64,000 nt of DNA from IMG/VR virus record IMGVR_UViG_3300005077_000002, positions 1 through 64,000 of that record. One strand, written 5' to 3'. The notes under the pieces are model-generated. The model worked only from the letters and a program-made list of their open reading frames with translations. It was not told where the DNA came from and ran no database searches. Both the position numbers and the translations under genes were made by a program. Shown in pieces: positions 2,570 through 16,535 of the stretch (position 1 is its first letter; each line of letters begins with the position of its first letter). The DNA comes from a virus (Duplodnaviria > Heunggongvirae > Uroviricota > Caudoviricetes).

Positions 2570-3340
2570 TTATGCCATAGCAGGTAGGGGAATACGACCA
2601 GTTGCCTGAAGTTTTTTACGAATACGACCAACCGTTGCATGGTGGCAGTCAAGCTGCCTGGCGATACGCCGGTTAGAGAAACGGGGATTATTGATGATCA
2701 TATCCGATATACGCTGTTGCAGGGACTTCGATGCTTCCGTAGTCACGGCAGCTGGCTGTACAGATTCTCCGGTAGCTGTGATCTGCGCGGGCGGTGGTTC
2801 AAAGCTGATTTGCTTTTTACTAACCGATCGTTTTTGACGCTTAGGCGTCGGTTTATTATAATTAATCGGTTCCACCGGGGATTGCTGCGAGCCTGGCTTA
2901 TCTTCAGCGCCTGCAGGCTTGCTTTGCTCAATACGTTGATCGCCGGATATCCAACCAAGCAGGGCAACCATGGTTACAGCTAACACACCCACAATAACAC
3001 CGATCGTCTGCGCGCCTTCCCAGTCGGGAGCAAATTTATACATATAATAGCCATTCATGAATGTACTCACCATGGACCCGAGCACGAGCATGATCTTCGC
3101 CGGTACCAGGTTACGCTTATATTCAACATTCCTGCTGGAGGTGATATACGACATGGTAAAGAATATAGCCATGTCGATAGCGGCCACGAGCATGATCTTC
3201 GATAGCATTGATATATCCAGGCCGCGGTATTCCAAATGACTGGTATACTGACGCAGTATGGAAAAACTAGCTTCAAACGTAGCCACAATAAAGAAGGTGG
3301 ACAGTATAAATGTCCAGATCTTTATGGTTCGTTGCTTCAT
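2570..3340 (-). CDS. Membrane protein (about 4 TM helices) with a C-terminal helix-turn-helix
   Basis: Hydrophobic N-terminal half; C-terminal RIARQLDCHHATVGRIRKKL resembles an IS630/sigma-like HTH; GAGGT RBS before the ATG at 3340 (track start 3376 also possible). Confidence 0.55.
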   Translation of the reverse strand: MKQRTIKIWTFILSTFFIVATFEASFSILRQYTSHLEYRGLDISMLSKIMLVAAIDMAIFFTMSYITSSRNVEYKRNLVPAKIMLVLGSMVSTFMNGYYMYKFAPDWEGAQTIGVIVGVLAVTMVALLGWISGDQRIEQSKPAGAEDKPGSQQSPVEPINYNKPTPKRQKRSVSKKQISFEPPPAQITATGESVQPAAVTTEASKSLQQRISDMIINNPRFSNRRIARQLDCHHATVGRIRKKLQATGRIPLPAMA

Positions 3341-3405
3341 ATAAATTACCTCAAATTTGTTAATTGATACTTGCATAGGTATGTCACACTGTATTAAATT
3401 GGTGC

Positions 3406-3885
3406 ATGGATAGTAATACTAGCAGGATAAAGGACGGCCGTAGCAGGGAATTGAAGATGGGGCAGCGGCAATACGCGCTAATGCGTACCCTGGCCGCGAC
3501 CAGCGACTGGATATACCTGAATGATATACAAACCAAACTGGATACCCGTATTAGCCACAATCATAAGTACCAGATCGTCAAAGACTACTGCGAAAGGGGA
3601 TTCCTGGACCGCCGCTACGAAATATACAACAACAGACCACTGGCGCTTATCCGGATAACACATCTTGGCGCAGCCTGGCTAAGGTATCATGAGTTGGGCA
3701 TCGTGTATGACATGCACGGCCAGTTCGATCCTGAAGAGCGCAGGGAATATACCAGTGTATGTTTGCAGCTCCAGGAATACGGTTTTACGTTCATGCGTGA
3801 TGCAGAGGTGGACGAGCGTACAATAGTAAAGAACTGTCCGGTTGTAGGGAAGGGCAGGGCAGGGGCGCAGTTAGCCCTGTTTTGA
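3406..3885 (+). CDS. Hypothetical protein
   Basis: 159-aa ORF. Confidence 0.5.
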   Translation: MDSNTSRIKDGRSRELKMGQRQYALMRTLAATSDWIYLNDIQTKLDTRISHNHKYQIVKDYCERGFLDRRYEIYNNRPLALIRITHLGAAWLRYHELGIVYDMHGQFDPEERREYTSVCLQLQEYGFTFMRDAEVDERTIVKNCPVVGKGRAGAQLALF

Positions 3886-3886
3886 T

Positions 3887-3915
3887 TTGACATCGATATT
3901 TTACAGTGGTATATT
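3887..3915 (+). promoter_or_regulatory. Consensus sigma-70-type promoter: TTGACA, 17-bp spacer, TATATT
   Basis: -35 at 3887-3892 and -10 at 3910-3915 with exactly 17 bp between them. Confidence 0.55.
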
Positions 3916-3921
3916 GCCCGC

Positions 3922-4110
3922 ATCGGCATGGCCGTGTTGTTAGTGAAACCTATAGTCGTGTTGGCCCCGTTGGCGTGCGCAAGCGAATGATACGCACGAC
4001 CTGTCAAAGGGGATTAAGTTTTAAGCCACCAAGATATCCCACAAATCACTAACAAGTATGGATATCACTCAATAAAACCCTGGTTAGCAATGACCGGGGT
4101 TTTCTATTTT
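3922..4110 (+). ncRNA. Candidate small non-coding RNA (about 190 nt) running from the consensus promoter to an intrinsic terminator
   Basis: No credible ORF on either strand; internal 7-bp hairpin GCGTGCG...CGCACGC; terminator at 4077-4110. Confidence 0.35.
4077..4110 (+). terminator. Rho-independent terminator
   Basis: ACCCTGGT / ACCGGGGT stem with an 8-nt loop, followed by TTTCTATTTT. Confidence 0.6.
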
Positions 4111-4343
4111 ATGGCTATTTCGATACTACGTAATCCTTATACCGAAACAGCCCACCAAACCTTTGTCACTTTGTAAAGCGATCCAGGCCTTGCCATGTAC
4201 GTCCATCGAAATGCTACCTGCAGGAAATTACATATAATAGAAGACCCGCCTTTGGTAGTGCGGGCCTTACTGTGTGGGAGGTGGGTTGGTATAAGGTTTA
4301 CGTAGTATAGTAAGTTATATGTGGGATTATAGATTACAACCCC

Positions 4344-4424
4344 TTATTTTGATGGTCTGGGCTTAGGCTTCGGGGTCGGCTTGGGAGTAGGCCTAAGAGG
4401 TAAGTCCTTGGAAAACATAGTCAT
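4344..4424 (-). CDS. Possible 26-aa Pro/Lys-rich peptide (MTMFSKDLPLRPTPKPTPKPKPRPSK) immediately downstream of the tRNA
   Basis: AAGGAG RBS 8 nt upstream of the ATG on the minus strand. Confidence 0.25.
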   Translation of the reverse strand: MTMFSKDLPLRPTPKPTPKPKPRPSK

Positions 4425-4447
4425 ATGGTAAACTCCTTAATACTTAG

Positions 4448-4520
4448 AGCTAACGGTCAGACTCGAACTGACGACCTGCCGCTTACAAGGCGGCTGCTCT
4501 ACCAACTGAGCTACGCTAGC
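4448..4520 (-). tRNA. tRNA-Thr (anticodon UGU), 73 nt, CCA not encoded
   Basis: Hand-folded cloverleaf GCTAGCG-TA-GCTC-AGTTGGTA-GAGC-A-GCCGC-CTTGTAA-GCGGC-AGGTC-GTCAG-TTCGAGT-CTGAC-CGTTAGC-T; all four stems pair. Confidence 0.85.
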
Positions 4521-4567
4521 GAATGGACGCACGGCAACCTTAGCCGGCCGCTTTATCAGTGCGGTGC

Positions 4568-4813
4568 TTAGCCTGCTGCTTGCGCCCTTATATCTTCAAT
4601 CGCCGATATGGGCATCTCTGTATAAATGGCCACATACCGTTTTTGATCCATTCTATGCATAATGGCCTTGGCCACATGCGCTTCACTTACACCCTGAATC
4701 TTGAGTAATTGTGTCATGGTCAACAGGAACTTGCGGTTCTCATTGCGCAACAGAAACTCCACATCCAGATTATCATTGATCCCGGAATACGACAGGGTGT
4801 ATTTCGCCATCAT
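4568..4813 (-). CDS. Hypothetical protein
   Basis: 81-aa ORF on the minus strand downstream of the tRNA. Confidence 0.4.
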   Translation of the reverse strand: MMAKYTLSYSGINDNLDVEFLLRNENRKFLLTMTQLLKIQGVSEAHVAKAIMHRMDQKRYVAIYTEMPISAIEDIRAQAAG

Positions 4814-5175
4814 ACAAGCACCCCGGCCGTCTTCAATCTGCTCAGCATAACGAAATACTCTTTGCTGGATATATCAAACGCGATGGAACCACCGGTAACC
4901 CTATATTCATTATTGGCCGCGGGTTCCACATGGAAGTCATCACTAAGCGGCAGGATGAACTGCTCACCGCTTATACTGGTTACGTGAATAAACAATGTTT
5001 TACATGCCATTTTAAATACCACGGCCCTTATGCAAAGAAAATACTGTATATAACGTACAACACGATGAATGCTATAAATGCGATGGTCGAGAGTACTACG
5101 AACGCAAAGGCATTGAATATCAGCAGCGGCACATATATGAGCAGCATGAATAATACCGTAAAATCCGTGCCGCAT
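4810..5175 (-). CDS. Hypothetical protein (start uncertain)
   Basis: 121-aa ORF that overlaps the ORF at 5028-5291. Confidence 0.3.
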   Translation of the reverse strand: MRHGFYGIIHAAHICAAADIQCLCVRSTLDHRIYSIHRVVRYIQYFLCIRAVVFKMACKTLFIHVTSISGEQFILPLSDDFHVEPAANNEYRVTGGSIAFDISSKEYFVMLSRLKTAGVLV

Positions 5176-5291
5176 TTCAAGTAAATCTCAAGAAAGGGCA
5201 GCGCGAAGAAGCTAATAATGACCAGCAGTTTAAACAACGGGAATACGAACTTAAATCGCTTGGGTTCATCTGATTTTGTAAGATCTTGCAT
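5028..5291 (-). CDS. Small hydrophobic (membrane) protein
   Basis: 87 aa with two predicted TM helices; overlaps the previous ORF, so only one of the two may be real. Confidence 0.3.
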   Translation of the reverse strand: MQDLTKSDEPKRFKFVFPLFKLLVIISFFALPFLEIYLKCGTDFTVLFMLLIYVPLLIFNAFAFVVLSTIAFIAFIVLYVIYSIFFA

Positions 5292-5398
5292 AAAACTCCA
5301 TAACTCAAAATATCATGTTCAATACGGCGACGGTGATAGCGATCAATCCGCCGCAAAGGAATCCGAGCGCGAATCCAAGTACAAAGGACCGCCAGGCA

Positions 5399-5596
5399 TT
5401 ACTGTACAAAACCGCGCACCCAGTCAATAAATCTAATATACCATGGACACTTATGCCCGGCCCAATCCGGATAAGCATCATCACCACCAATAAACCATTC
5501 CATGTCGGCTGTACTCTGGGGCTGTATTATTTTAATCCTACGCCCACACCTGGGACAGACAGGCAAATCACCAATCGGAACATCTGAAAACTGCAT
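5399..5596 (-). CDS. Small zinc-binding protein (CPRCG...HKCP)
   Basis: 65-aa ORF with a Cys/His motif. Confidence 0.4.
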   Translation of the reverse strand: MQFSDVPIGDLPVCPRCGRRIKIIQPQSTADMEWFIGGDDAYPDWAGHKCPWYIRFIDWVRGFVQ

Positions 5597-5633
5597 ACGA
5601 ACACCACCATTCTAAATGTTTCTTTAGATATGT

Positions 5634-5738
5634 CATTGGTCGTCAAAAATATTGACAACCAATGCGGCTGCGCCGTCATCAAAAGGACACAAAATTGATG
5701 CAGCTACGCTGTAATTATGGTGACAACCAATGCGGCTG
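5634..5738. repeat. Iteron-like repeats: TGACAACCAATGCGGCTG as two direct copies (5653-5670 and 5721-5738) plus an inverted near-copy (5634-5645)
   Basis: 18/18 identical direct repeats 68 bp apart that extend to about 27 bp with 4 mismatches; CATTGGTCGTCA-N7-TGACAACCAATG is an imperfect palindrome. Confidence 0.7.
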
Positions 5739-5939
5739 TACTGTCATTGTGGGGCACCTATACCAGAAAACCAGTAAGGGTGGTTTGGCGCCTTTGCGCC
5801 AGCGGCCTACTGGAACAATGGGGCGGCCGGCCAGTTGTTTATGTAATAAACTGGACAAATCGCTTAATAGGGGCCGAAAATGCTTTGTGTATATTTTGGG
5901 CCAGTACTTTGGCCAGGCTTTGCCTAATATCCAGATTGA

Positions 5940-6180
5940 GCCCACCCCCCCTTCTATACATGGTACATACTAATTACTTTTTAATTACATTCTATATACA
6001 AATTACCTTCATAGGGTTAATATCTATTTATTTAATCTTAATTACGTGTTATAACTAATTACAGTTAATCATCTTTCTATATACTACCCATTAACATATG
6101 TGGGTTAATAATAATCTATGTGTGCACTAGAATATATAATATATAATATATAATACTCCCGGGCCGGCCAAAACGTACCC
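5940..6180. other. AT-rich non-coding tract with TAATTAC repeats and (TATATAA)x3; origin-of-replication candidate together with the iterons
   Basis: Very low GC, repeated TAATTAC four times, tandem TATATAA at about 6133-6158, no ORF. Confidence 0.4.
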
Positions 6181-6304
6181 GAACGGGTATAGCGCTAAAT
6201 TCGGGTTGAAGACTGCTCAGTGCTTTATTACCAACGGTTTGCGGGCTTTTTACGGGCTATTTTTGAACCACCAGGTATACCCGATCGGGTGTAATATGGG
6301 CGCG

Positions 6305-6321
6305 AGTGCATAAATATACAG
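6305..6321 (+). promoter_or_regulatory. Palindromic motif AGTGCATAAATATACAG, copy 1 of a promoter/operator family
   Basis: 19-mer GCGAGTGCATAAATATACA is identical to the copy at 13221-13239. Confidence 0.5.
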
Positions 6322-6330
6322 TGACGAAGT

Positions 6331-6347
6331 AGTGCATAAATATGCAT
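6331..6347 (+). promoter_or_regulatory. Palindromic motif AGTGCATAAATATGCAT, copy 2, 26 bp after copy 1
   Basis: TGCATAAATATGCA is near-palindromic; it lies upstream of the + gene at 6605. Confidence 0.5.
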
Positions 6348-6604
6348 TTCGGTAGGGCAGGGTGGGTTGTAGCTGGGCAGGCGAGCCCTTAATAGGGGTT
6401 GAAATGTGGTGTCGGGAGAGAGGGGCCAGGTATGTATTATATGGTACCTACTCGAATTTACGTTTCGAGCCCACCCGGTACTGTATAACACACTTAACCT
6501 GAGCCCTGTTGCTATGAGGGCCTCATCCAAAGTCGGGTGAGTGGGCGTGCATCGTGCGTCAGGTATTGGGTCATATAGCAGACTATCATAAACAGGAGGT
6601 TCGT

Positions 6605-7063
6605 ATGATAGTTCGATGGCTAGGAGCCTTCCGAAATGACGGCACCGTCAGTACGCTAGAACAGGAACTAGCGAACATGACGGCATTCCATGATGGGTTG
6701 CAATTTGAGGAACGTAGTGCGGAAAGCATACGTTGCGCAGAGGCATCATGCCTGTCCATCAGTGGGTATTCCTGGAAATATAGGCCTTTACTTGGTCTTT
6801 TAGTTTCCAGAAAGTCCGTCATACGTAGGTTTAAAACCGACGTATGGGCGGAGCCCGTTAATGATGGGTCAGGCAGATTAATGCCTACCTCAAAGGGCAA
6901 CGATTCATGGAATGAGTTCTTTGTCAAACCTGACTACGTTGCGGTGATAATCCGCAAAGCAGCCATTAAAGACAAAGAGTTGCTCCGTCAAGTCTCCGAA
7001 GTTGCCCATGCACATGGGTTGACACTGCTTCATGCGGAGACTCTTCGGGAGGTTAAACTATGA
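6605..7063 (+). CDS. Hypothetical protein
   Basis: ACAGGAGG RBS 5 nt before the ATG at 6605 (the track ORF begins at 6554). Confidence 0.55.
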   Translation: MIVRWLGAFRNDGTVSTLEQELANMTAFHDGLQFEERSAESIRCAEASCLSISGYSWKYRPLLGLLVSRKSVIRRFKTDVWAEPVNDGSGRLMPTSKGNDSWNEFFVKPDYVAVIIRKAAIKDKELLRQVSEVAHAHGLTLLHAETLREVKL

Positions 7064-7564
7064 AGCAGAGTCCGGCATGTGGAGTAACATACGCCGCACC
7101 GCATGTCGTTAGAAAGGATAGGAAGTAACCTGTCGCCACACCTCGCTTGGACGTGCTATTGCAAGTCCAAGAAGTGTTGAAGTGGAAGGCGTCATACCTA
7201 GATGGCGGTATGTAAATATTATGCGATTCCCACTTGTCTGTTAGTGGGTGAAAAATAATCAGAAACGCTTTGTGACAGAATGTGCGGTGAAACAATGTCA
7301 CGTTACCAGTGCCACGAGAAGTGGGTAACAGAGGTCGTGCTCTGACTGGTAGCTGTGTGGCATCATTATCCTAAGTCTGAATGGTGCCGCACTGGTCAGC
7401 ACAACACACTTGATCCCCAGGTAGGAAGCTGACTTAAAGGGAATCTGGACCGCTAAAAAACCAGAAGGGGAAAACACAAACCCAAGTAGGTGACTAAACG
7501 TCCCAGCCTGCTTGGGTTTTTAATTATAAGTGGGGCACGTACGCCATATACCAAGGAGGTTGTT

Positions 7565-8242
7565 ATGGCACGATTTAATTCAAATATGTCTATCGGTGAG
7601 ATACTGGCAGCTAAGACTGCGGTGTCATTCGCCGCACTGTCTACAATTGCTGGGACTTACCGTGCCACGCTAGCACGGGAACACAAATTCGCTAATGAGG
7701 AGGCGCGCAGGTCTGACGTTTCCTCATGGGGATCGGATGCCAATTGGGTGAATACCCAACAGGCTTCGGCGGTGAAATATCACCAAGAGGCAGCGTTGAC
7801 TGGTCTTTCCGGTAAGAACCCGAATGCTTTGGAAAAGGCGGCACGTAAAGTGGCTGCAAAGGCCAAGGCTGAGTTCATGGCAGTTGATGCCGTGGCTCAG
7901 GAGTCATCGGACAAGGCATTCGCACGCCTTGAGAATCCGACTCCGCGTCGCCATGATGCGAAGCCAACCCAGAGATTCAAGGCTCTGGTGGGTCAGGCCA
8001 TGGTCGACAAGGCTAAGGCTGACAAGGCAAAGGCGGCCTGGATGCAGGCGTTGCAGGCCTTAAAAGAGGCCAGAAAGGCCGTCAAGGTCGTTGAGGCCGG
8101 GACTGAAAAGGCCATCATACGCTACGAACGTCTTATGATGAGCCCAGACAAGGCCTATGAAGTCCTTGGTGGGAATATGCTCGATGCATCATGGTATGCG
8201 ATAGCTTTGGACAGCTTCGCATACGAGCTCGAGCAGTATTAA
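7565..8242 (+). CDS. Hypothetical Ala/Lys-rich protein
   Basis: AAGGAGG RBS before the ATG at 7565 (track start 7490); lies immediately upstream of the RNAP-like gene. Confidence 0.55.
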   Translation: MARFNSNMSIGEILAAKTAVSFAALSTIAGTYRATLAREHKFANEEARRSDVSSWGSDANWVNTQQASAVKYHQEAALTGLSGKNPNALEKAARKVAAKAKAEFMAVDAVAQESSDKAFARLENPTPRRHDAKPTQRFKALVGQAMVDKAKADKAKAAWMQALQALKEARKAVKVVEAGTEKAIIRYERLMMSPDKAYEVLGGNMLDASWYAIALDSFAYELEQY

Positions 8243-8257
8243 ATAAAGAGGGACGCC

Positions 8258-10891
8258 ATGAGCGCCCCTTCTAACAAGCGAGATACAATGAGTTACCGCT
8301 CAATGTTATCTCATACCCTAAACGCAACAAACACCATGGAGGTAAATATGTTGCACAAAAGTAATGTAGCTATGAATGCTACAAAAGTCAACTCGGTTGA
8401 CGAGTTGTTCGGAAAGGTGTTCGGTAACCTTATGTTGCCGGATGTACAGGCGGAAACGGCAGAGCTTCTGTCCATTGAGCCTAAATACGCCACTATACGT
8501 CACATGATACTCACCATTAAAGTGACTGTAGTGAAGTCGGATGATCCGGCAATGGCAGGCGTTGTTAAGACCGAGATTGTTGGGTTAACACCCAACGAAG
8601 ATATGAAAGATCCAGTTGAAAAACGGATCTGTTTGTATCCTAAAGTCGGTGATGCTGAAGTCTTGTCCGTTACTGTCTTATTCGTCGGATCGGACGACGC
8701 ATCAAAACTGGCATTCGATGATAAATCGTTGGATGTCAAGTTCGGTGAATGGCTAAAGTCAATGGGATACGACCTGATGGGCGGTACATCATTGAATAAG
8801 GGAACGTTCTATCTCGTGAACTGGAAAAGTCACGGGATAAAATTGGCCCATGAGTCCATTGGTTATCTGTCTTTGTTGCTAACTGGCGCTGGATCATTCC
8901 GTGATGGTCAGCCGATGATGTTCGGCGACGGCAAAGAACAAGTGCGTGTTCTTGTCGTGACCAGGGATGAGTTGCGTAAGACAGGTTTGGCGGGCGATGG
9001 TGCTGGATTGGCATTCAGAACATTCGGCCAGCACAGGACACTGTTGAATGGCAAATCCGTAGCCAAGGGCATCTACATTGGCTATAATGATGCCATTAAC
9101 TTCGGTCTGCAGGTTCCGAAAGACTGGATGGATTATCATTTCGTCATTTGTGAAGATGACGTTAAGATAAATCCGGTGAAAGCCGGAATCTATACCGGAC
9201 ATGTTGTCATAACCCATGATAACGTATGGACCATACGTGGTCAAGAGGTTAAAGTGGGCTTTGAAGTGTTTCAGAACATTAAAGAGTCACAAGGTGTTTA
9301 TAGCCTTCTGACTTCAAGAGTTCTGAACGCATCACTGCCATCCTACGAGGAAATCGTGGCCCGCGGTGAAGCTGAAAGGATGCTGGAAGCAATAGCAGAC
9401 GGCACCATTGACGAGTATGAACCGTTGGTAGTGCGCTCGACTCTGATGGAAGCAGTGCTTTCACCGACGTTCGGTCCGCGCAATCCCTGGGTTGCTAATA
9501 AGCTTGAGAACTCCGTGGTTAATTACGTGTTCTCAAAGCCTATGGCAGGCACTGAGTTCAGGATAGTTGTTGTTGTGGATGATACTACCGCAAAGCGTAT
9601 TAATGCCATACGACTGGCAGATGATACACAACGCACCAGCGGTAAATTGTTCTTCAAATATCCGGTAGTAGCTGGGGTTGCGGTCGTCACCGGCAGAAAC
9701 CACTTTGGTCCATTCGTTGTCGTATCAGAGAGTTTGGCAGCAATGCTGAACACAGACTCTGATGGTGATGGCGCAGTGGTTTGGGCTGGTAATACAGTCG
9801 ATTACATTATCAACAATGATCTGGTAAAAGATCTCGTTGATCTGAAGATCGACAAAGCAAACCTGCAACGTCGTGACGACGCCATGGAGCCGGTTAATTT
9901 GGCCAAACAAGCCCTACACATCATGAACTCATCACGGATGATCGGATTCCTTACAAATCTGTATTACCGTGGTGCTGTTTCCAATGCAGTTGGACTGACT
10001 CAGTTGGATTTGAGTCCTATTTACGAGTCTATTGAACTCGTGATCAAGGGCGCCAAATACAAGACTGAAGAAGTGCTGAAGGCTACCATGGCCAGATTGT
10101 GGACAGATATTCCAGTAAAAGCTCTAAACGACATGATAAAGATGCCGTGGGGCAGAAGTGCCGTTGAGAAAATGCTGGCAGCATTTAATGAAGACGGAAA
10201 CATCGATATTCTATCCAGCAGAATAGACGATCCGATTCATTACATGGATGCTGTGTGGAACGCCACACTAGACAGATGTTCCATGGAAATCGGTAAGCTG
10301 CGCAGTAATGTGCTGCCACTGTCCGAGTTTGCCAACAGGATATCAAATCCAAGCAATCCGGAAGATGTGTCTACTGCTTATAAGGAATTGCATGGTATTC
10401 TGCTGGCCTGGAAAGAACTGCGGCCTGGTGGTATCATGGAAGGCAGAGCAGACGTGATGGCAAAGATTGCAGCAGCAGCTGGTCAGCATTTCTCATTGGA
10501 TGTCCGTCGTAAGATTACGAAGGATTATCTCGAGAAAACAGCCAGCAAGACTGGTGCATTCGCTATTCATCTTAACTTCGGTTCTATGACTGAATTAAGT
10601 GGTGGGCCGTCAGTGATGAAAGCTGCAGATTCCAGGTATAAACTCGTACGCGTATTCTGCTCAGGTGATGGTGCATTCGAAGTAACACCTGAAGTGTGCG
10701 ACGATATTAAACTGGATTCAGGTATGTTCTATCGTGGTAACACGATATTCAACTATGGATCAGGTTACTCTGAAGCCGATGTTGATGGCTACGAAGTCGA
10801 AGAGGTAGTGCCATATCTGACGTGGAACAAAGAGGCAAGAAAGATCACGTCCACACGTTCTGCCTGGATACTTCTGTCCAAGAGTAACTAA
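8258..10891 (+). CDS. Large protein (877 aa), candidate single-subunit two-barrel DNA-dependent RNA polymerase (YonO / crAss-like type)
   Basis: LNTDSDGDGAVVW resembles the universal beta-prime catalytic loop NADFDGD(Q)MAV (DxDGD); the size matches YonO-like enzymes; RBS AAGAGGGA; otherwise no recognisable motifs. Confidence 0.45.
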   Translation: MSAPSNKRDTMSYRSMLSHTLNATNTMEVNMLHKSNVAMNATKVNSVDELFGKVFGNLMLPDVQAETAELLSIEPKYATIRHMILTIKVTVVKSDDPAMAGVVKTEIVGLTPNEDMKDPVEKRICLYPKVGDAEVLSVTVLFVGSDDASKLAFDDKSLDVKFGEWLKSMGYDLMGGTSLNKGTFYLVNWKSHGIKLAHESIGYLSLLLTGAGSFRDGQPMMFGDGKEQVRVLVVTRDELRKTGLAGDGAGLAFRTFGQHRTLLNGKSVAKGIYIGYNDAINFGLQVPKDWMDYHFVICEDDVKINPVKAGIYTGHVVITHDNVWTIRGQEVKVGFEVFQNIKESQGVYSLLTSRVLNASLPSYEEIVARGEAERMLEAIADGTIDEYEPLVVRSTLMEAVLSPTFGPRNPWVANKLENSVVNYVFSKPMAGTEFRIVVVVDDTTAKRINAIRLADDTQRTSGKLFFKYPVVAGVAVVTGRNHFGPFVVVSESLAAMLNTDSDGDGAVVWAGNTVDYIINNDLVKDLVDLKIDKANLQRRDDAMEPVNLAKQALHIMNSSRMIGFLTNLYYRGAVSNAVGLTQLDLSPIYESIELVIKGAKYKTEEVLKATMARLWTDIPVKALNDMIKMPWGRSAVEKMLAAFNEDGNIDILSSRIDDPIHYMDAVWNATLDRCSMEIGKLRSNVLPLSEFANRISNPSNPEDVSTAYKELHGILLAWKELRPGGIMEGRADVMAKIAAAAGQHFSLDVRRKITKDYLEKTASKTGAFAIHLNFGSMTELSGGPSVMKAADSRYKLVRVFCSGDGAFEVTPEVCDDIKLDSGMFYRGNTIFNYGSGYSEADVDGYEVEEVVPYLTWNKEARKITSTRSAWILLSKSN

Positions 10892-10897
10892 TAAGAT

Positions 10898-10930
10898 AGC
10901 CCTGGCTTAAGCTGGGGCTCTTATTTATTC
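10898..10930 (+). terminator. Rho-independent terminator
   Basis: AGCCCTGG / CTGGGGCT stem with a 6-nt loop, then CTTATTTATT. Confidence 0.55.
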
Positions 10931-11290
10931 ATGGGGATCCATATGAACATCATCACTTGGTGCGAATTGCGTACTGAAGTTAATACGCGTGATATTCAGA
11001 CTATCAGACAGTCTGAGTGGAAAGCGTATGTCAATGCCGCAACAAACGCCATCCATGATTTTAACAGGGCATACACAGAAGGGAAGAGTGATTTCATCTA
11101 TATCACCGATCTGGGTATGCCTGTTATGCAGTTGAAATGCATTATAAGTGATGCATTCCGTTTACTGGATCAGGCAGAGGTAGACTGGAGTATGGACTTC
11201 AGGGCGTCGGCTTTGCAGAAAGTAGAGCTGGCCATAACTACTGTGCATGAAGCCTGGAAGCACGGTAATCGTGGATTAATAATCCACTAG
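10931..11290 (+). CDS. Hypothetical protein
   Basis: 119-aa ORF. Confidence 0.5.
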   Translation: MGIHMNIITWCELRTEVNTRDIQTIRQSEWKAYVNAATNAIHDFNRAYTEGKSDFIYITDLGMPVMQLKCIISDAFRLLDQAEVDWSMDFRASALQKVELAITTVHEAWKHGNRGLIIH

Positions 11291-11304
11291 AAAGGTACAC
11301 AACC

Positions 11305-11901
11305 ATGAAAAAGAACTTTTATGCAGTTAAGGTCGGAAGAAAGTCCAATGTTGTGGTCAGTACATGGACTGAATGTGAATCTCTAGTGACTGGATTTAAT
11401 GGAGCACAGTTCAAGGGATTTGCAACCTACGATGAAGCCATAGCTTATCTAAATGATTCAGTTCCATGTGCTATGGTCGGTGAATATGATGTCACTATAT
11501 ATGTGGATGGCTCATGCGGCGGTGGAAAGGTCTCATGGGCCTTTGTCGTCTACAGGGATAATACTAGGATATATGAAGACAGTGGACTGGTGTCTACTGA
11601 CAGATATCCTGATGTATTATCCATGAACAACGTAGCCGGCGAACTTGCCGCTGCTATGCGTGCTGTAAAGTGGGCGAGTGACAATAATATAAAGATAAGG
11701 TTAGTGTTCGATTATACTGGAATCCGCGAGTGGGCTATAGGATCATGGAAAGCCAAGAATGAGTACACTAAGGCTTATGTAGATTGGATGAGTAGTAGTA
11801 GCATGGATGTAGTTTCTGAATGGCTACACGTAAATGGGCACACAGGGGTGGAAGGTAACGAGTATGCTGATAAGTTATGCAAGGCAGCATTGAAAATGTA
11901 A
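11305..11901 (+). CDS. rnhA: RNase HI with an N-terminal RNA/DNA hybrid-binding domain (caulimovirus viroplasmin-like)
   Basis: N-terminus FYAVKVGRKSNVVVSTWTECESLVTGFNGAQFKGFATYDEAIAY matches the hybrid-binding domain; catalytic motifs DGSC, AELAA (Glu), FDYTG (Asp) and HVNGHTGVEGNEYADKL (His/Asp). Confidence 0.8.
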   Translation: MKKNFYAVKVGRKSNVVVSTWTECESLVTGFNGAQFKGFATYDEAIAYLNDSVPCAMVGEYDVTIYVDGSCGGGKVSWAFVVYRDNTRIYEDSGLVSTDRYPDVLSMNNVAGELAAAMRAVKWASDNNIKIRLVFDYTGIREWAIGSWKAKNEYTKAYVDWMSSSSMDVVSEWLHVNGHTGVEGNEYADKLCKAALKM

Positions 11902-11904
11902 TAA

Positions 11905-12000
11905 TCCTCCCTTCGGTCGGCTGCCTCCTCCGTCGGCAGCGCTCCTCGTCCCTCGTCGCTGCCGGTCGCTCCGCTCGCCTTCGGCGCCGGCACTATGGCG
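11905..12000. other. GC-rich hairpin cluster immediately after rnhA
   Basis: GCTGCC-N9-GGCAGC and CCTTCGG-type stem-loops; unlikely to be coding (the Arg-rich ORF 11877-12344 looks spurious). Confidence 0.4.
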
Positions 12001-12059
12001 CGACATGTATAAAAATAAACAAAAACAAAAAGCCGGTAGCCCCGGCAAGGAGAAAAAAG

Positions 12060-12344
12060 ATGGAAAGACGCCATCGCATAAGAAAGAACGAACAGATTAC
12101 TATAACCTCATTACTTAACGACAGTCTATTAAGAACTGTCGTAACGACGGTCTATAATAAGCTGATAAATCGGGATGGTCACAGCGACCAGCCCGAGTTT
12201 AGTCAATTTTTAAGGGGAATATGCCCCGTGCCGGTAATATTTGCCGGTAACGGGGGGTACAAGGTAACGGGCGTGGTGCTCGTGCACCCGTCCCCAAGTA
12301 AAAAAGCACATATAACATGTGGGAATCAAGAGTTTTATTTTTGA
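12060..12344 (+). CDS. Possible small protein (95 aa)
   Basis: AAGGAG RBS 8 nt before the ATG at 12060. Confidence 0.35.
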   Translation: MERRHRIRKNEQITITSLLNDSLLRTVVTTVYNKLINRDGHSDQPEFSQFLRGICPVPVIFAGNGGYKVTGVVLVHPSPSKKAHITCGNQEFYF

Positions 12345-12379
12345 TTCTCATACACGCCCTGTGCCCGGGGCGTTAAACA

Positions 12380-12560
12380 ATGGGCTTTCAAGCTACAAGG
12401 TAAGCCGGTGCGAAAACCTAGGTCGGCACCTACGAAAGTAGGTCAAAGTAGAGGTATCGGGATATGAGCCCGGCAAGGTGCCCGGACGCGTATGGTTACA
12501 TACGAGTTGTGGATAGGCACGTAAATACGGGCTTCCTGTCTGGCTCATATCGATCATGGT
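12380..12560 (+). ncRNA. Structured non-coding candidate with a 10-bp long-range helix, a GAAA tetraloop hairpin and a CCGG hairpin
   Basis: GATATGAGCC (12460-12469) pairs with GGCTCATATC (12541-12550); hairpin CCTAC-GAAA-GTAGG; no convincing ORF. Confidence 0.3.
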
Positions 12561-12688
12561 AGCCATTTGTGTTAGTACCCCGCTATTCAAGGGGATTGTG
12601 GCTATTGTTGCCATGATCGGCGGCGCATTATGTGGTAGAGCGCCGGGCATAATGCTAAAGGTTCTACCCAGGACAGAAAGGGATCAGA

Positions 12689-12994
12689 TTGAACTATATC
12701 AATCTGACTCCTCATACTATCGTGCTCAACGATGGGCGCGAATTCCAGCCGTCTGGAATTATTGCACGTGTAAGCGTGCAGTTCGGGCCTATCGTGAACG
12801 ATGTTAGTGTGCAGTCCTATGGGAACGTGGTAGATCTACCAGAACCCAAGGACGACACGTGCTACATCGTTAGTGGCATAGTACTCGCTGCTTGCGGCGG
12901 TCGAGTAGACGTTGTAGCTCCGGCTACAGGTCACAAAGACTGCGTGCGCAACGAGAAAGGACACATTGTGTCCGTACCGTGTTTCACACGATAG
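12689..12994 (+). CDS. Hypothetical protein
   Basis: 101-aa ORF with a TTG start preceded by AAAGGGA. Confidence 0.4.
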   Translation: MNYINLTPHTIVLNDGREFQPSGIIARVSVQFGPIVNDVSVQSYGNVVDLPEPKDDTCYIVSGIVLAACGGRVDVVAPATGHKDCVRNEKGHIVSVPCFTR

Positions 12995-13220
12995 TGTGCA
13001 CAGAGTCCAAAGCCATGGATCACAGGGGCTGCAACGATCCATGGGCTGACGGCCCCATTAGCGGTGCAGGATTCAAAGTTTACCTTTAAAGGGTATATTT
13101 TGAAATCATAATCTGCTGCAACCCTGACGGCTATGAATTATCTAGCCGAGTATGCTCGTCAGGGCAACTTAATATTTGTGCGGCCGGCATACCCGCACAC
13201 CCTGAGATATGGATCTCTGG

Positions 13221-13239
13221 GCGAGTGCATAAATATACA
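13221..13239 (+). promoter_or_regulatory. Promoter/operator motif GCGAGTGCATAAATATACA embedded in the long palindrome CCCTGAG...GAGTGCA-N13-TGCACTC...CTCAGGG
   Basis: Identical 19-mer to the copy at 6303-6321; flanking inverted repeats GAGTGCA/TGCACTC and CCCTGAG/CTCAGGG (13200-13262). Confidence 0.55.
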
Positions 13240-13540
13240 TTGTGCACTCACTCAGGGATCTTTGTTGGTGTATCCCGTGGGGGACTGCGCGTGTGTCCAT
13301 GCCTGACTACCATGGATGTGCGGCGCATAGTGGATCTAGTCCATCCGCAAGTGTCAGGTCCGAGTCCTGCTATGCACCAATATTCCTGCTGGCCAGTTGG
13401 GCAGTAAAAGCCTGGCTGGCCTTTATATTTCCTAAAAGAGGGACAGAGGGGAAAGATTTACCTCCTTGGCTCCTTTGCCTCTCTTTTAGGGTGCTCATGC
13501 GTGAGCACTAATCAGTATTAACCAAAGATAGGAGTGACCG

Positions 13541-13930
13541 TTGAAAAAGAAAACCTTCAAGGTTACCGGAACTGACGAATCCGGTAATCCTGTGAATACG
13601 ATTGTACCGGCGAAAGACCGCGCCGGTGTCATACGTCCAATGGCGAAATGCGGAGATCTCGTTGATGATGTGCTGGTCAGCACCATTGAGCAGTTATTGT
13701 TGGATTACTGTGAAGACGATAAAGCCGTCAGAATCAGAATCAAAAAGGATAAATATGATTATTATCATGTGGCCGCTGACATGGCAAAACCAATGAAAAT
13801 GAACCCTATGACAGTGGCAAAATACATAGTAGGGTCATTGGAACGCGCCGGGTTCAGCGTGGCCATGGACAGACCAAGTCATCCATGGGCCTTCAGATTA
13901 AGACTCGGTGACTGGGAACAACAACAATAG
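13541..13930 (+). CDS. Hypothetical protein
   Basis: 129 aa; AGGAG RBS before a TTG start. Confidence 0.55.
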   Translation: MKKKTFKVTGTDESGNPVNTIVPAKDRAGVIRPMAKCGDLVDDVLVSTIEQLLLDYCEDDKAVRIRIKKDKYDYYHVAADMAKPMKMNPMTVAKYIVGSLERAGFSVAMDRPSHPWAFRLRLGDWEQQQ

Positions 13931-14145
13931 AAGGGACCAAATGGAAACATTTCCTGTTATCTATTTGCTTGCGTTGATAGCCATCGTCGGTGATGGTTAT
14001 CGTCGTTCAACCGCAAAAACAGAATAGGGCCGCGTGGCCCTTTCCAACCAGGTCTCCGGACTACCGTGGTTACACGGCAGTTGCGAATAGCCGCGTAACT
14101 CGGGGACTTCGTTGGGAACCCATAACACATAGAAAAGGAGGGCAT

Positions 14146-14298
14146 ATGCCTGAAGATACCGAGGATATCATCACCACAGATATCCGGAATGCCGTAACAT
14201 GGCAATACCCACAAATGTTCGTGAACGTAATGCCGAAGGGGGGTGATTTGGTACAAATCGGCCCGTGGACACGTGATCGGTTCGAGAAGGAGGACTAA
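14146..14298 (+). CDS. Small protein (50 aa)
   Basis: AAGGAGG RBS 4 nt before the ATG at 14146 (the track ORF is longer, starting at 13990). Confidence 0.5.
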   Translation: MPEDTEDIITTDIRNAVTWQYPQMFVNVMPKGGDLVQIGPWTRDRFEKED

Positions 14299-14299
14299 C

Positions 14300-14449
14300 A
14301 TGGACATTGGTTCTGGTCGCGGATGGCCCGAAAGCGCACTGTCAAACTTCGCGATACATCCGTTTGCATTGGATGGAATACTGGTGTTAACACAGTCGGA
14401 ATTTGTGTCCAGATTGCATAAGCTGAGAAATGAGGCTGACAATGTATGA
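14300..14449 (+). CDS. Small protein (49 aa)
   Basis: AAGGAGG RBS before the ATG at 14300; overlaps the previous stop (coupled translation). Confidence 0.5.
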   Translation: MDIGSGRGWPESALSNFAIHPFALDGILVLTQSEFVSRLHKLRNEADNV

Positions 14450-14632
14450 GGCCCTATTCATGGGTCTCTTACTGCTGGGATACTGGATCTCAGCTAAGTC
14501 AGACGACCTCCCAGAATAGTTAAATATTCTGGCCGCCGCTCCGCTATCCAGGCCATCAGGCGAAATGTGTGAGCCGCGGTTTGAATATTTAAAATCCCCA
14601 ATAAGCCTACTTAAAGCTTGCCGGCACTGGCG

Positions 14633-14654
14633 GGTGTGTATAAATATGCACTCG
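14633..14654 (+). promoter_or_regulatory. Promoter/operator motif GGTGTGTATAAATATGCACTCG
   Basis: Shares the TGYATAAATATGCA core and the TGCACTC arm with the other copies; about 60 bp upstream of the gene at 14715. Confidence 0.5.
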
Positions 14655-14714
14655 TCCTACCCTGCCACTGGGGAATAACTAATAAATATACATAACAGAG
14701 GAGAAGAAAATTAC

Positions 14715-14909
14715 ATGGGAATATCCCATAGAGAACAAGAAATCCTTGACCGCTATTCGGTTGAGGCGGAAGGACTCAGTCCATCCGTATTGAACAGAAT
14801 CATGCACCAGGGAGCGGCGTACCCAGTGTGCAAACATGGCAGCAAAAAGAAGTCCCGCCGCGAAAAGACACGCAAACCCCAGCGTGGGGGAAAACGTGGA
14901 TGCTATTAA
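14715..14909 (+). CDS. Small basic protein
   Basis: GAGGAG RBS; 64 aa with a Lys/Arg-rich C-terminus. Confidence 0.5.
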   Translation: MGISHREQEILDRYSVEAEGLSPSVLNRIMHQGAAYPVCKHGSKKKSRREKTRKPQRGGKRGCY

Positions 14910-15090
14910 AAATCAAAATAAAGCTCAAGGCAAAGTACGTGATAAAAGTACCCGGAATGACAGATTCATCCGCGTCATCCGGTACACCACAAACAATTGC
15001 CCGTTAGAGCTGGGCGATATGGACAACGCAGGATTAGCACGCGCCTGCGAGCATTGTCCTAAGTTAAATGCGTGTGAAAAACTCAATTGA
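14836..15090 (+). CDS. Possible small protein that overlaps the previous ORF in another frame
   Basis: 84-aa ORF containing CxxC/HC motifs; uncertain. Confidence 0.3.
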   Translation: MAAKRSPAAKRHANPSVGENVDAIKNQNKAQGKVRDKSTRNDRFIRVIRYTTNNCPLELGDMDNAGLARACEHCPKLNACEKLN

Positions 15091-15101
15091 AGGAGGTGCT
15101 C

Positions 15102-15332
15102 ATGCACAAAGTCGAAATAGGCAACTTTGTGATATGGCATTCTGGCAGGTTTGTATCCGTGGCTAATACGATAGATGGCCTGCACAGAAAGGCCGTAGCG
15201 GACATTTCCGATAGTCTTATATCAAACTACGGTATAAGACTAAGGAATGGTAAGGCCAGACTCACCGCATTCTCAGAAGTAGCAAAAAACAGGATACAGA
15301 GCTTAATCAACCACGCTCTGACAACCAAATGA
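15102..15332 (+). CDS. Small protein (76 aa)
   Basis: GAAGGAGG RBS before the ATG at 15102. Confidence 0.55.
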   Translation: MHKVEIGNFVIWHSGRFVSVANTIDGLHRKAVADISDSLISNYGIRLRNGKARLTAFSEVAKNRIQSLINHALTTK

Positions 15333-15538
15333 AGAAAGCCGCAATAATAGCAGCACGCCTATCCAGCAAGATTAAAGATGCCCCCTGCACGGTATTCATG
15401 TGCGGTGGCGGATCCAGCAAAACACCGGCAAAAGTGCTGCGCTCGTCAACACCACAGGCGAGCAGAGAAACCCTGGCCATCATGGCTGAAGAAGCCAGAC
15501 GAGGTCGGTGGAGGCCCCCGGAAGGAAGAAAGAGATAA
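15329..15538 (+). CDS. Small basic protein
   Basis: ATGA start/stop overlap with the previous gene. Confidence 0.35.
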   Translation: MKKAAIIAARLSSKIKDAPCTVFMCGGGSSKTPAKVLRSSTPQASRETLAIMAEEARRGRWRPPEGRKR

Positions 15539-15684
15539 GTCCAATGTGGCATAAACGCCACAAAGAACATCATCAATCTACAGAAGGGAGTAAAATTAAT
15601 GATTACATTGTCCACAGTAGGTATAATAATTGGCACGGCATTAATGTTGTGCCTCACCACATCACCACGAAGAAGGAGGATCAA

Positions 15685-16041
15685 ATGAAAACAAAATCCA
15701 CCACCACCGCACACAAAGTACGCAAGGCCCACAAGGCCAGCATACTGCTCAGCAACAACAGAGTGTTAAAGGACCTAGCCAGGGAGAACTGGCTGCGTAA
15801 GCAACAGGACTACTTGAACATGCACCTGACCGGTATGGCTCAGGGCGCTGATACCGTAGCAAAATGGTTCTCAAAGGACCAGCGCGGATTGAAGCAAGTC
15901 GTCAAGGCTCTGTGGCCAATCCTGAAGCACGATGCGCGCCTGCTGGGCAAAGTAACCCAGGAACAGTTATATAAAATCAACACCTTTGTTGCATACCGGC
16001 ATAGCATCGCCGATGCAGCGAAGGAATATATTAACAATTAA
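15685..16041 (+). CDS. Basic protein (118 aa)
   Basis: GAAGGAGG RBS 5 nt before the ATG at 15685 (track ORF from 15508). Confidence 0.55.
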   Translation: MKTKSTTTAHKVRKAHKASILLSNNRVLKDLARENWLRKQQDYLNMHLTGMAQGADTVAKWFSKDQRGLKQVVKALWPILKHDARLLGKVTQEQLYKINTFVAYRHSIADAAKEYINN

Positions 16042-16053
16042 ATCGGAGGAATC

Positions 16054-16479
16054 ATGTCAGAGAACATCACCACCACACCCACACCTGCACCGCAGAGGAA
16101 AAAGCGTCAGACCACACGTGACGCAGTCAGTCGTAAGAACGTAGAACCCCGTGACAATGTAAATAATATTCTAAAAGCGATGAACTCCATCGGATCAGAA
16201 TTCAAACAAATGGTAAAACCTTCGCCGCAAAGCGACGAAGCCCTAAAGCGTAAACTGGATAAGATCAGGGCCTCCGTGGCCCGTGGAGTTACTGTGCAGG
16301 ATAAACAGAGAGAGGAAATCAGTCTCCTGTCAAAGTTCGAACGTGGTAAAACCGTAGCATCAGTTGGCCGGTCCATTCATGGATTATTTACATCAGGCGC
16401 TGACCTGATGAAAGACTTCGCTGAAGGACTTAAGGGAAAACCATCCCGAGCGGAACAAAAACTGATGCAGAATAAATAG
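16054..16479 (+). CDS. Hypothetical protein
   Basis: GGAGG RBS; 141 aa. Confidence 0.6.
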   Translation: MSENITTTPTPAPQRKKRQTTRDAVSRKNVEPRDNVNNILKAMNSIGSEFKQMVKPSPQSDEALKRKLDKIRASVARGVTVQDKQREEISLLSKFERGKTVASVGRSIHGLFTSGADLMKDFAEGLKGKPSRAEQKLMQNK

Positions 16480-16504
16480 CGAGCCTATCCCTCGCTGATA
16501 TAGG

Positions 16505-16535
16505 GTCGGGGTTAACGCCCCGACTCTTTATGTCT
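16505..16535 (+). terminator. Rho-independent terminator
   Basis: GTCGGGG-TTAACG-CCCCGAC hairpin followed by TCTTTATGTCT. Confidence 0.6.

Follow-up and report, generated by a model that had tools for sequence, protein, structure and literature searches.

Single-subunit two-barrel RNA polymerases (RNAPs) represent, in a minimal form, the enzyme by which all cellular genomes are transcribed, and have been used to reason on the origin of this enzyme. To our knowledge, only a few of them have been studied experimentally, namely QDE-1, YonO, crAss gp66, and P23-45 gp64 and gp96. YonO, encoded by the Bacillus prophage SPbeta, is a demonstrated DNA-dependent RNAP (PMC5467207). In QDE-1, the beta-like barrel uses Q736-x-R738, K743 and K767, with Q736 contacting the 2'-OH of the product (PMC9508822). 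Some two-barrel RNAPs are virion proteins that are ejected, as in the cases of P23-45 gp96 and crAss gp66 (PMC10770324; bioRxiv 10.1101/2020.03.07.982082), and the gene for P23-45 gp64 sits among early genes, not structural genes (PMC10770324).

The gene and its sequence family

The window analyzed here is a 64-kb stretch of an uncultured-phage genome of approximately 189-190 kb, in which the initial annotation had pointed to an 877-aa ORF as a candidate YonO/crAss-like single-subunit two-barrel RNAP. The ORF list of the window indeed contained exactly one long ORF at 8258..10891 (+ strand, stop codon included), which starts with ATG and is preceded 6-7 nt upstream by a GAGG-type ribosome-binding site. 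The size, previously considered to fit YonO-type enzymes at about 880 aa, was comparable to that of YonO (877 vs 839 aa), and the gene was confirmed to lie in a GC-richer module (GC 0.43-0.49 in 1-18 kb vs 0.32-0.41 beyond). A terminator-like GC-rich hairpin was located 7 nt past the stop codon (10898..10919, + strand; RNA fold -21.1 kcal/mol, z -2.5), and a hairpin at the start codon and ribosome-binding site of the gene was not significant (z -1.8). We consider that the product is probably a non-virion DNA-dependent RNAP of this approximately 190-kb phage, composed of both barrels in a single chain.

The protein had been described as otherwise unrecognizable, which agreed with the results of our searches. 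No match was obtained in Pfam, NCBIfam or the PDB sequences, and tblastn against 50,697 phage records returned nothing. One marginal PHROG of unknown function (phrog_32589, E 0.012), an NCBIfam ABC-ATPase match (E 0.018, 14 bits vs a cut-off of 392), and PDB sequence matches to RLP24, COG2 and a spike protein (E ~0.06-0.1, by single sequence and profile) were rejected as noise. Relatives were collected by an exhaustive HMMER search of 1.84 billion proteins, giving a family of 24 representatives, whereas a word-indexed search gave only three even when queried with a profile. From scans of public collections, we obtained just one further locus in IMG/VR and two metagenome loci that were new, and no family member was present in the GTDB species-representative genomes. 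The family was found in uncultured phages, where the long contigs, if present, were approximately 190-200 kb. Its enzymes are compact (780-880 residues), and none of 20 members matched Pfam, including the Rpb1/Rpb2 models. Four sub-lineages (P0002, P0004/P0005, P0006 and P0018; five listed proteins) carry N-terminal extensions of 100-150 residues with 2-3 transmembrane-like hydrophobic segments, and such an extension is absent from the window protein. The signatures of the family were not found in the supplement text of a survey of 23 two-barrel families (PMC10770324). Judging from their sequences, these proteins constitute a separate, deeply divergent family and are not members of the YonO or crAss families.

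Predicted fold and conserved motifs

A structural model was generated with AF2 from 20 sequences and no templates, showing a mean pLDDT of 82 and a pTM of 0.72, with all five models at 78-82. An earlier model from four sequences was discarded due to its pLDDT of 35. The top Foldseek matches in the PDB were QDE-1 (5.6e-10), P74-26 gp62 (1.8e-7) and P23-45 gp96 (2.5e-4), with dozens of beta-prime/Rpb1 chains below them, and the match in BFVD was P23-45 gp64 (2.2e-8). The model also matched RDR2, gp66 and lone double-psi beta-barrel (DPBB) proteins. Two independent structure-comparison methods, run on two libraries, pointed only to two-barrel RNAPs, and no competing unrelated fold family, structural or virion, appeared among the matches. 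The initial annotation had proposed examining a predicted structure for two DPBBs, with their absence or a relationship to an unrelated structural or virion family counting against the assignment. The examination was positive, as the significant PDB matches of the model were exclusively single-subunit two-barrel RNAPs, and neither adverse outcome was seen in the structure searches. The model predicts a fold in which two DPBBs form an active-site cleft. The catalytic core of archaeal PolD DP2 was not the closest structural likeness, and a reading of the motif as Toprim (DxDxxG) or archaeo-eukaryotic primase (AEP) was rejected, as the fold search gave no Toprim or AEP and a DnaG primase is already present.

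Anything beyond the sequence motifs in the following layout rests on the predicted structure, and the domain boundaries were drawn from its secondary structure, not from residue-level superposition. All features lie on the + strand. Residues 1-62 are predicted to be disordered, and are followed by an N-terminal alpha/beta domain (approximately residues 63-225, 8444..8932) that was delimited by secondary structure, pLDDT and the conserved GGTxLNKGxFY and GYLSLLxTP motifs. The putative beta-like barrel (DPBB-B/DPBB1; approximately residues 226-340, 8933..9277, boundaries approximated from a beta-strand run at 229-331) is N-terminal to the Asp-loop barrel, the same order as in QDE-1 and gp64 (PMC10770324, PMC9508822). 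It contains G257-Q258-x-R260...K270-G271 (9026..9070), candidate product/NTP-binding residues that would grip the RNA 3' end and the incoming NTP. GQxR followed by KG 12-16 residues on was detected by regex in 16 of the 18 members covering the region, and in a 17th (P0015) in the alignment. In the two-barrel superfamily, the basic residues at this site are two Lys or, in the QDE-1 clade, Q-x-R plus Lys. The signature of the window family resembles Q736-x-R738/K743 of QDE-1 and GQIRTKK of YonO, the equivalence of Q258, R260 and K270 being assigned by position only. Since Q736 of QDE-1 contacts the product 2'-OH, the matching Q-x-R favors an RNA product.

The putative beta-prime-like catalytic barrel (DPBB-A/DPBB2; approximately residues 429-510, 9542..9787), onto which the YonO profile aligns, consists of strands at 429-509 with pLDDT above 85, and holds both a K-x-P strand and the Asp loop. 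The former, K467-Y-P469-V-V-A472-G473 (9656..9676), is presumed from conservation and spacing to be the counterpart of beta-prime R425-A-P427-T-L-H, and K467, P469, A472 and G473 are each at least 90% conserved. It precedes N498 by 31 residues (31-33 in nearly all members). The [KR]-x-P to Asp-loop spacing, some 30-40 residues in the superfamily, is 33 residues for E. coli beta-prime and 41 for YonO. The loop N498-T-D500-S-D502-G-D504 (9749..9769; residues 497-509 are LNTDSDGDGAVVW) is comparable to N458-ADFDGD-464 of beta-prime and QFDNDGD of YonO, and its three aspartates are predicted to bind the catalytic Mg2+. A 33-residue helix (545-577, 9890..9988) carrying the conserved IGxLTxxYY is a candidate bridge helix, as this motif lies 61-64 residues past the Asp loop in all members and the YonO-profile alignment runs through the helix. 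The helical hairpin 586-626 (10013..10135) with the near-invariant I592-E593-x-x-I596-K597-x-x-K600 may be a trigger-loop-like element, a role assigned from its position following the bridge helix. The remainder is a C-terminal helical domain with a PLHYMDxIWN motif and a terminal beta domain (794-875), together at 10154..10882, as judged from conservation and the model.

On sequence grounds, a bare D-x-D-G-D is weak evidence when taken alone, as it is not rare. The chance expectation from the called-ORF composition was 0.02 in the protein and 0.23 over the approximately 19,700 ORF residues of the window, while that for N-x-D-x-D-G-D was 0.012. When all ORF frames of 150 codons or more were examined, the NTDSDGD loop was the only D-x-D-[GSA]-D in the window. 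Among 20 relatives with 20-42% identity to the window protein, D502 was invariant and N498, D500, G503 and D504 were at least 90% conserved. Of the 19 aligned relatives covering the region, 18 keep N-x-D-x-D-G-D, and P0020 has lost it. In these 18, the distance from K-x-P to the loop was 31-33 residues, and those from the loop to IGxLTxxYY and IExxIKxxK were 61-64 and 91-99 residues, respectively. The conservation in a divergent family and the fixed spacing to three other motifs raised the NTDSDGD loop above chance.

The fold matches place the protein, as far as the model indicates, among the compact single-subunit RNAP relatives comprising QDE-1/RDR, YonO, P23-45 gp64/gp96 and crAss gp66. QDE-1/RDR (PDB 7y7p/7y7q, 7w84) shares with it the predicted order of beta-like barrel, connector, Asp-loop barrel, bridge helix and trigger-like hairpin. 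Its first barrel carries a Q-x-R...K signature similar to the one described here, and its second barrel also has a D-x-D-x-D loop. In contrast to QDE-1/RDR, the window protein is encoded by a phage and not a eukaryote, shows only 11-12% identity and has no PF05183 match; the dimerization and C-tail regulation of QDE-1 are not evident, and we presume a DNA template. P23-45 gp64 and P74-26 gp62 (PDB 8f5m) are likewise phage single-subunit two-barrel RNAPs from an early region, although they are approximately 260 residues shorter and come from other hosts and a genome of 84 kb vs ~190 kb. No sequence homology to gp64/gp62 was detected by tblastn against phage genomes. As non-virion RNAPs transcribing phage genes, they are the closest functional counterparts of the predicted enzyme.

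YonO shares the single chain, and its GQxR and x-D-x-D-G-D are at similar positions, with the Asp loop at ~535 vs 500 here. It differs in the loop (DNDGD vs D[SGA]DGD in the window family), in its C-terminus, a Cys-rich zinc-ribbon-like tail with no counterpart in the window protein, and in family size, as the YonO family has more than 4,600 matches, many with PF05183, while the window family has 24 representatives and none of 20 members matched PF05183. The only HHalign match to YonO or the YonO-family profile aligned the Asp loops and extended into the bridge-helix region, with probabilities of 1.5% and 11%. As there was also no Pfam or PDB match, homology to any known RNAP was not significant at the sequence level. 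The crAss-like phi14:2 gp66 (PDB 6vr4), a virion cargo protein of ~2,180 residues among structural genes with the motif DFDxD, matched the model less well than QDE-1 or gp62 did, and the window protein displayed none of the gp66-type features (~2,000 aa, structural module, DFDxD). The proposal of a YonO/crAss-like single-subunit two-barrel RNAP was therefore upheld with respect to the kind of enzyme, by fold and motifs, but not with respect to YonO membership (no PF05183, HHalign 11% at best) or the crAss gp66 type. In multisubunit RNAP, NADFDGD with R-x-P 33 residues upstream is close to the window motif with its spacing of 31, whereas both predicted barrels here lie in one 877-aa chain and not in a beta-prime/beta pair. 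Other multisubunit-RNAP modules and Rpb1 Pfam domains were not detected in the window protein, which places it outside the Rpb1 family.

Genomic context, promoter candidates and alternative roles

The neighbors of the polymerase gene are early/replication genes, encoding a PD-(D/E)XK nuclease, RNase H and SSB, and not structural genes. An RNase H1 gene with hybrid-binding Cauli_VI and RNase_H domains in Pfam (11305..11901, + strand) is the conserved downstream partner. Homologous RNase H genes (33-42% identity between contexts) were present at most three genes downstream in five of eight family contexts, in which the polymerases are 25-39% identical. The other three had none nearby, and a search there for diverged RNase H genes was also empty. 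The window further encodes PolA (family A DNA polymerase) and a complete DnaG-type primase (57212-58495), both separate from the polymerase gene, so that the roles of DNA polymerase and primase are already filled. The phage of the relative P0007 likewise encodes a family A DNA polymerase. From the ORF, the conserved motifs with their spacing, the fold prediction with its matches and the gene neighborhood, we infer that the polymerase is catalytically active on a DNA template and yields RNA, and its timing and promoter specificity are likewise inferred. Its expression would be early, from the region of the early/replication genes, and a portion of the phage genome would be transcribed by it without the need for host RNAP.

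The initial annotation had also linked the polymerase to the promoter-like motif TGCATAAATAT, but our analysis gave no support for this motif as the promoter of the enzyme. It forms an almost perfect palindrome of 18 bp with four copies, of which two precede the operon of the polymerase itself, and a related phage lacks it in the homologous region. The full 18-mer was in excess (4 copies vs 0.17 expected), while the TGCATAAATAT 11-mer with at most one mismatch was not above chance (9 vs 4.5 expected). In appearance, the palindrome is closer to an operator than to a promoter, and the AGTGCATAAATATGCACT sites may be targets of the polymerase or of a repressor. A promoter search by k-mer enrichment in 32 intergenic gaps gave nothing convincing, as the enriched words, for example CTATAAAGG and TAACTAATAA, were all AT-rich or linked to Shine-Dalgarno sequences, and a sigma-70 scan was at the background level (18 sites vs 16 expected).

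ColE1 plasmids and mitochondria start replication by transcription-primed synthesis, and the two-barrel RNAP could similarly serve mainly in replication, its origin transcript or R-loop being trimmed by RNase H1 into a primer for the Pol I-type polymerase. The recurrence of RNase H behind such divergent polymerases in five contexts keeps this role under consideration, as do the SSB and PD-(D/E)XK nuclease in the same module and the family A DNA polymerases of the window phage and the P0007 relative. RNAP-based priming was also raised by Iyer et al. 2021 for jumbo phages carrying RNase H1 (PMC7824862). We nevertheless regard this role as rather unlikely, since the DnaG-type primase already covers priming, phage replication modules commonly include RNase H1 to remove Okazaki primers, the adjacency could reflect inherited synteny of one phage lineage, and three contexts lack RNase H nearby. 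Both the conserved association with RNase H and the presence of transmembrane-like N-termini in some relatives could point to functions apart from plain transcription. It is conceivable, but doubtful, that the polymerase and RNase H1 form a dedicated two-gene R-loop module, with the sub-lineages having such N-termini working membrane-anchored where the DNA enters.

The N-terminal extensions in four sub-lineages, together with the ejected P23-45 gp96 and crAss gp66 (PMC10770324; bioRxiv 10.1101/2020.03.07.982082), would also fit a virion-delivered or membrane-anchored early RNAP acting on incoming DNA, like crAss gp66 or the tape-measure-fused gp96. This is improbable, as the window protein has no hydrophobic extension and in all contexts inspected the gene was among early/replication genes and not next to genes for tail or ejection proteins. 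An RNA-dependent RNA polymerase (RdRP) of the QDE-1/RDR type, working on phage or host transcripts, is very unlikely; QDE-1 itself uses DNA templates, and we know of no dsDNA-phage process that requires an RdRP. QDE-1 and plant RDR2 were indeed the best structural matches and Q-x-R has been called typical of RNAi-related RdRPs (PMC9508822), but GQIR is also present in the DNA-dependent YonO (PMC5467207). It is extremely unlikely that DxDGD is coincidental and the protein unrelated or catalytically dead. The chance expectation of ~0.23 in the window ORFs, the lack of a significant RNAP link by any sequence method and the loss in P0020 would be compatible with coincidence, whereas the motif with its three companions at fixed spacing across the family and the agreement of the structure comparisons argue against it. 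The non-virion DNA-dependent RNAP remains our preferred interpretation.

Implications for large uncultured phages

From these results, this large uncultured phage probably encodes a transcription enzyme of its own that had not been catalogued before, belonging to what would be a new deeply divergent two-barrel family invisible to standard annotation. As the family occurs in uncultured phages, of about 190-200 kb where long contigs are available, such phages are probably not wholly reliant on host RNAP, and a result of 'no RNAP found' for large metagenomic phages can be a false negative. If the replication-priming role were true, a large-phage lineage would begin replication by transcription-primed synthesis, and either an R-loop module or membrane anchoring would put the two-barrel fold to a new function in phages. 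The compact enzymes, the RNase H partner and the membrane-anchor-like variants provide testable leads for enzymology and for the start of infection.

The ORF and its protein family

The ORF listing of the window confirmed the 877-aa ORF with an NTDSDGD loop described in the initial annotation, as a single long ORF (8258-10891, + strand) with an ATG start. A Shine-Dalgarno sequence of the GAGG type lies directly 5' of the ORF, and a terminator-like hairpin was found 7 nt past its stop codon. The Asp loop (N498-T-D500-S-D502-G-D504) falls within residues 497-509, LNTDSDGDGAVVW, and is the sole such motif among the long ORFs of the window, where the composition of the called ORFs gave chance expectations of 0.23 for D-x-D-G-D and 0.012 for N-x-D-x-D-G-D. 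As a sequence pattern taken alone, the motif is weak evidence. The protein was indeed otherwise unrecognisable, as had been noted: it matched no Pfam family at E up to 1, no PDB sequence and none of 50,697 phage genomes in tblastn, while NCBIfam gave nothing meaningful and PHROG one marginal match to a family of unknown function.

Among 5.8 billion proteins, word-indexed searching detected only three relatives (35-39% identity) of the protein, whose source contig is 188,693 bp long. The family is small and rare, as only 24 proteins (E up to 1e-3) emerged when 1.84 billion cluster representatives were searched exhaustively with an HMMER profile. It occurred on one contig only in IMG/VR, and 185,579 genomes representing bacterial and archaeal species yielded no member. 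In the alignment of 20 members, 20-42% identical to the window protein, G473, D502, G563, I592, E593, K600 and N668 were invariant, and residues conserved in at least 90% included G257, Q258, K270, G271, K467, P469, A472, N498, D500, G503, D504, I562, T566, Y569, Y570, I596 and K597. The loop consensus was N-[ITVA]-D-[SGA]-D-G-D, with NADSDGD or NADGDGD in some members, compared with NADFDGD in cellular beta-prime. Spacing was also fixed across the family, with KG 12-16 residues after GQxR, the N of the loop 31-33 residues after K-x-P, and IGxLTxxYY and IExxIKxxK located 61-64 and 91-99 residues C-terminal to the loop, respectively. The K-x-P distance agrees with the 33 residues from R425-A-P427 to N458 in E. 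coli beta-prime; in YonO, R-S-P lies 41 residues ahead of the loop. One relative, P0020 (1007 aa), has lost the Asp triad and GQxR and carries large insertions, and from these sequence changes is probably a catalytically dead paralogue.

Predicted fold and relation to known polymerases

AlphaFold2 failed with a 4-sequence alignment (pLDDT 35). The model used here, built from the 20-sequence alignment and no templates, had a mean pLDDT of 82 and a pTM of 0.72, all five models reaching 78-82, and disorder was limited to residues 1-62 and 784-791. The proposed two-barrel fold, which the initial annotation suggested testing by structure prediction, was supported by this model. All three significant Foldseek matches in the PDB were single-subunit two-barrel RNA polymerases, namely QDE-1 (E = 5.6e-10), P74-26 gp62 (1.8e-7) and P23-45 gp96 (2.5e-4), followed by dozens of chains of beta-prime, Rpb1 and the Pol IV largest subunit. 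The search of BFVD detected P23-45 gp64 (2.2e-8), an experimentally validated non-virion RNA polymerase (PMC10770324), along with several unnamed viral proteins and giant-virus RNA polymerase subunits. No competing unrelated fold appeared in either database.

The secondary structure of the model and the motifs pointed to the following order after the disordered residues 1-62: an N-terminal alpha/beta domain (63-225), a beta-like barrel (about 226-340), a helical connector (345-425), the putative catalytic barrel (about 429-510), a bridge-like helix (545-577), a trigger-like hairpin (586-626), a helical domain (633-781) and a terminal beta domain (794-875). The same domain order is given for gp64, QDE-1 and gp66 (PMC10770324). 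In the beta-like barrel of QDE-1, Q736, which touches the product 2'-OH, replaces the first canonical lysine, and R738, K743 and K767 bind product and NTP (PMC9508822). Both the family pattern G-Q-x-R...K-G and AGQIRTKK of YonO fit this signature, an equivalence suggested by position.

HHalign of the family profile with YonO gave one match with the Asp loops aligned (probability 1.5%), and the 18-member YonO-family profile gave a single match (probability 11%, pairwise E = 0.0027), whose 88 columns start at the Asp loop and reach into the predicted bridge helix. The latter alignment, not significant by itself, agrees with the fold result. The window protein would work like QDE-1, YonO and gp64, yet belongs to none of those families. 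The suggested assignments to YonO and the crAss gp66 type were not upheld, as the protein has no PF05183 match while many YonO relatives have one, and gp66 is far larger and lies in another genomic setting; gp64 has no sequence similarity to it. The protein is probably a new family-level member of the two-barrel RNA polymerases. The P23-45 study counts 23 such families described so far (PMC10770324), and its supplementary text, including lists of RNA polymerase motifs in phages, holds no DSDGD, DGDGD or VIKSAK strings. The absence of these strings from that text suggests that the present family is uncatalogued.

Genomic setting and the palindromic motif

The source of the window is a large phage equipped with nucleic-acid machinery of its own. 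It encodes a RecA/UvsX-like protein (40949), a DNA ligase (43879), a family A polymerase, PolA, with 3'-5' exonuclease and an N-terminal uracil-DNA-glycosylase-superfamily domain (53441-56287), a DnaG primase (57212) and a ribonucleotide reductase (59808). A 740-aa fusion of kinase (AAA_33), metallophosphatase and T4 Rnl1-type RNA ligase (Pnkp-RNA ligase; 23103-25325) resembles an RNA (tRNA) repair enzyme in a single chain. PolA was at best 22-27% identical to those of cultured phages, the best matches being Bacillus phages such as JL, CP-51 and SPO1L1 and Thermus phages TSP4 and phiFa, and the DNA-level search found no match for the window. The AT-rich part also encodes an AAA ATPase (26322-27596) and a DUF2201 metallopeptidase/VWA-like protein (35648-36955).

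The polymerase gene does lie in a GC-richer left part. GC content shifts sharply from 0.43-0.49 in 1-18000 to 0.32-0.41 in 18001-64000, and AT skew is unusually high (+0.24) at 14-18 kb. A stretch of about 2.6 kb without long ORFs (3900-6550) divides leftward from rightward gene blocks; it contains a tRNA-Thr(UGU) gene (4447-4520, - strand) and several short direct repeats (5653/5721 and 5969/6054). Positions 1-99 hold two copies of a perfect 24-nt repeat, AAGTTCGGAATTCCGAACTTTTCC, at a distance of 75 nt, and a palindrome lies within each.

The order PD-(D/E)XK nuclease (1066-2241, on the opposite strand), polymerase, RNase H1 (11305-11901) and SSB (16646-17128) is common to the window and the 198-kb contig of relative P0002 (locus L001). 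A homologous RNase H gene was located at most three genes downstream of the polymerase in five of eight informative contexts from across the family (window, P0002, P0008, P0011 and P0016), at L001 13201-13794, L013 3662-4276, L016 3590-4081 and L018 12000-12584 besides the window, with 33-42% identity where BLAST paired them. Those of the window and L001 carry an N-terminal hybrid-binding (Cauli_VI) domain. Other recurrent neighbours were a CCA-adding-enzyme-like gene (P0004, P0008) and Csx3-domain genes (Cas_csx3, PF09620; P0012, P0016), the latter being the next annotated gene after the polymerase (L017 11033-11326; L018 10433-11590) and possibly having an anti-CRISPR function. Two genes downstream of the polymerase, L001 also encodes a 181-aa protein (14046-14591) weakly matching the RNA polymerase alpha-subunit C-terminal domain (PF03118), for which BLAST found no window counterpart.

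Intergenic k-mer enrichment in the window revealed no convincing promoter of the polymerase. The recurring palindromic motif previously proposed as promoter-like proved real, being part of an 18-bp near-palindrome, AGTGCATAAATATGCACT, with four copies of at most two mismatches each where chance would give 0.17, all of them located in the GC-richer 6-15 kb (6305-6322, 6331-6348, 13224-13241 and 14635-14652). Its reading as a promoter fared less well. As two copies stand in tandem upstream of the operon containing the polymerase gene, and the related 198-kb phage lacks the motif in its homologous region, the pattern looks more like the operator of a dimeric regulator than like a single-subunit polymerase promoter.

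Proposed function and its alternatives

The evidence best fits a non-virion, DNA-dependent, single-subunit RNA polymerase, for which we infer the template, product, timing and promoter. The three aspartates of the loop would bind Mg2+ and the Q-x-R...K residues the RNA 3' end and NTP, while placement of the template would fall to the bridge-like helix. The gene setting resembles that of P23-45 gp64, among early/replication genes, and structural genes adjoined the polymerase in none of the family contexts examined. As PolA and DnaG are separately encoded, the protein is not needed as DNA polymerase or primase.

The conserved RNase H partner would also fit replication priming of the ColE1 or mitochondrial type, an RNA polymerase-based idea raised for other jumbo phages by Iyer et al. 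(PMC7824862); as the main role this is unlikely, given that DnaG is present and RNase H1 is frequent in replication modules. Delivery with the virion or membrane anchoring appeared quite improbable for the window protein. Four sub-lineages (P0002, P0004/P0005, P0006 and P0018; loci L001, L005 and L009) have N-terminal extensions of 100-150 residues with two to three transmembrane-like hydrophobic segments, which would be unusual for an RNA polymerase and hint at anchoring or ejection, but the window protein lacks such segments. The structural matches to QDE-1 and RDR2 could indicate RNA-dependent activity, which we consider highly improbable, as YonO with the same signature is DNA-dependent (PMC5467207). 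A chance origin of the Asp-loop motif was made very unlikely by its conservation and the fold, and deserves almost no weight.

The interest of this putative polymerase family lies in its deep divergence, in its being missed by standard annotation of large metagenomic phages, and also in its conserved RNase H partner and membrane-anchor-like variants.
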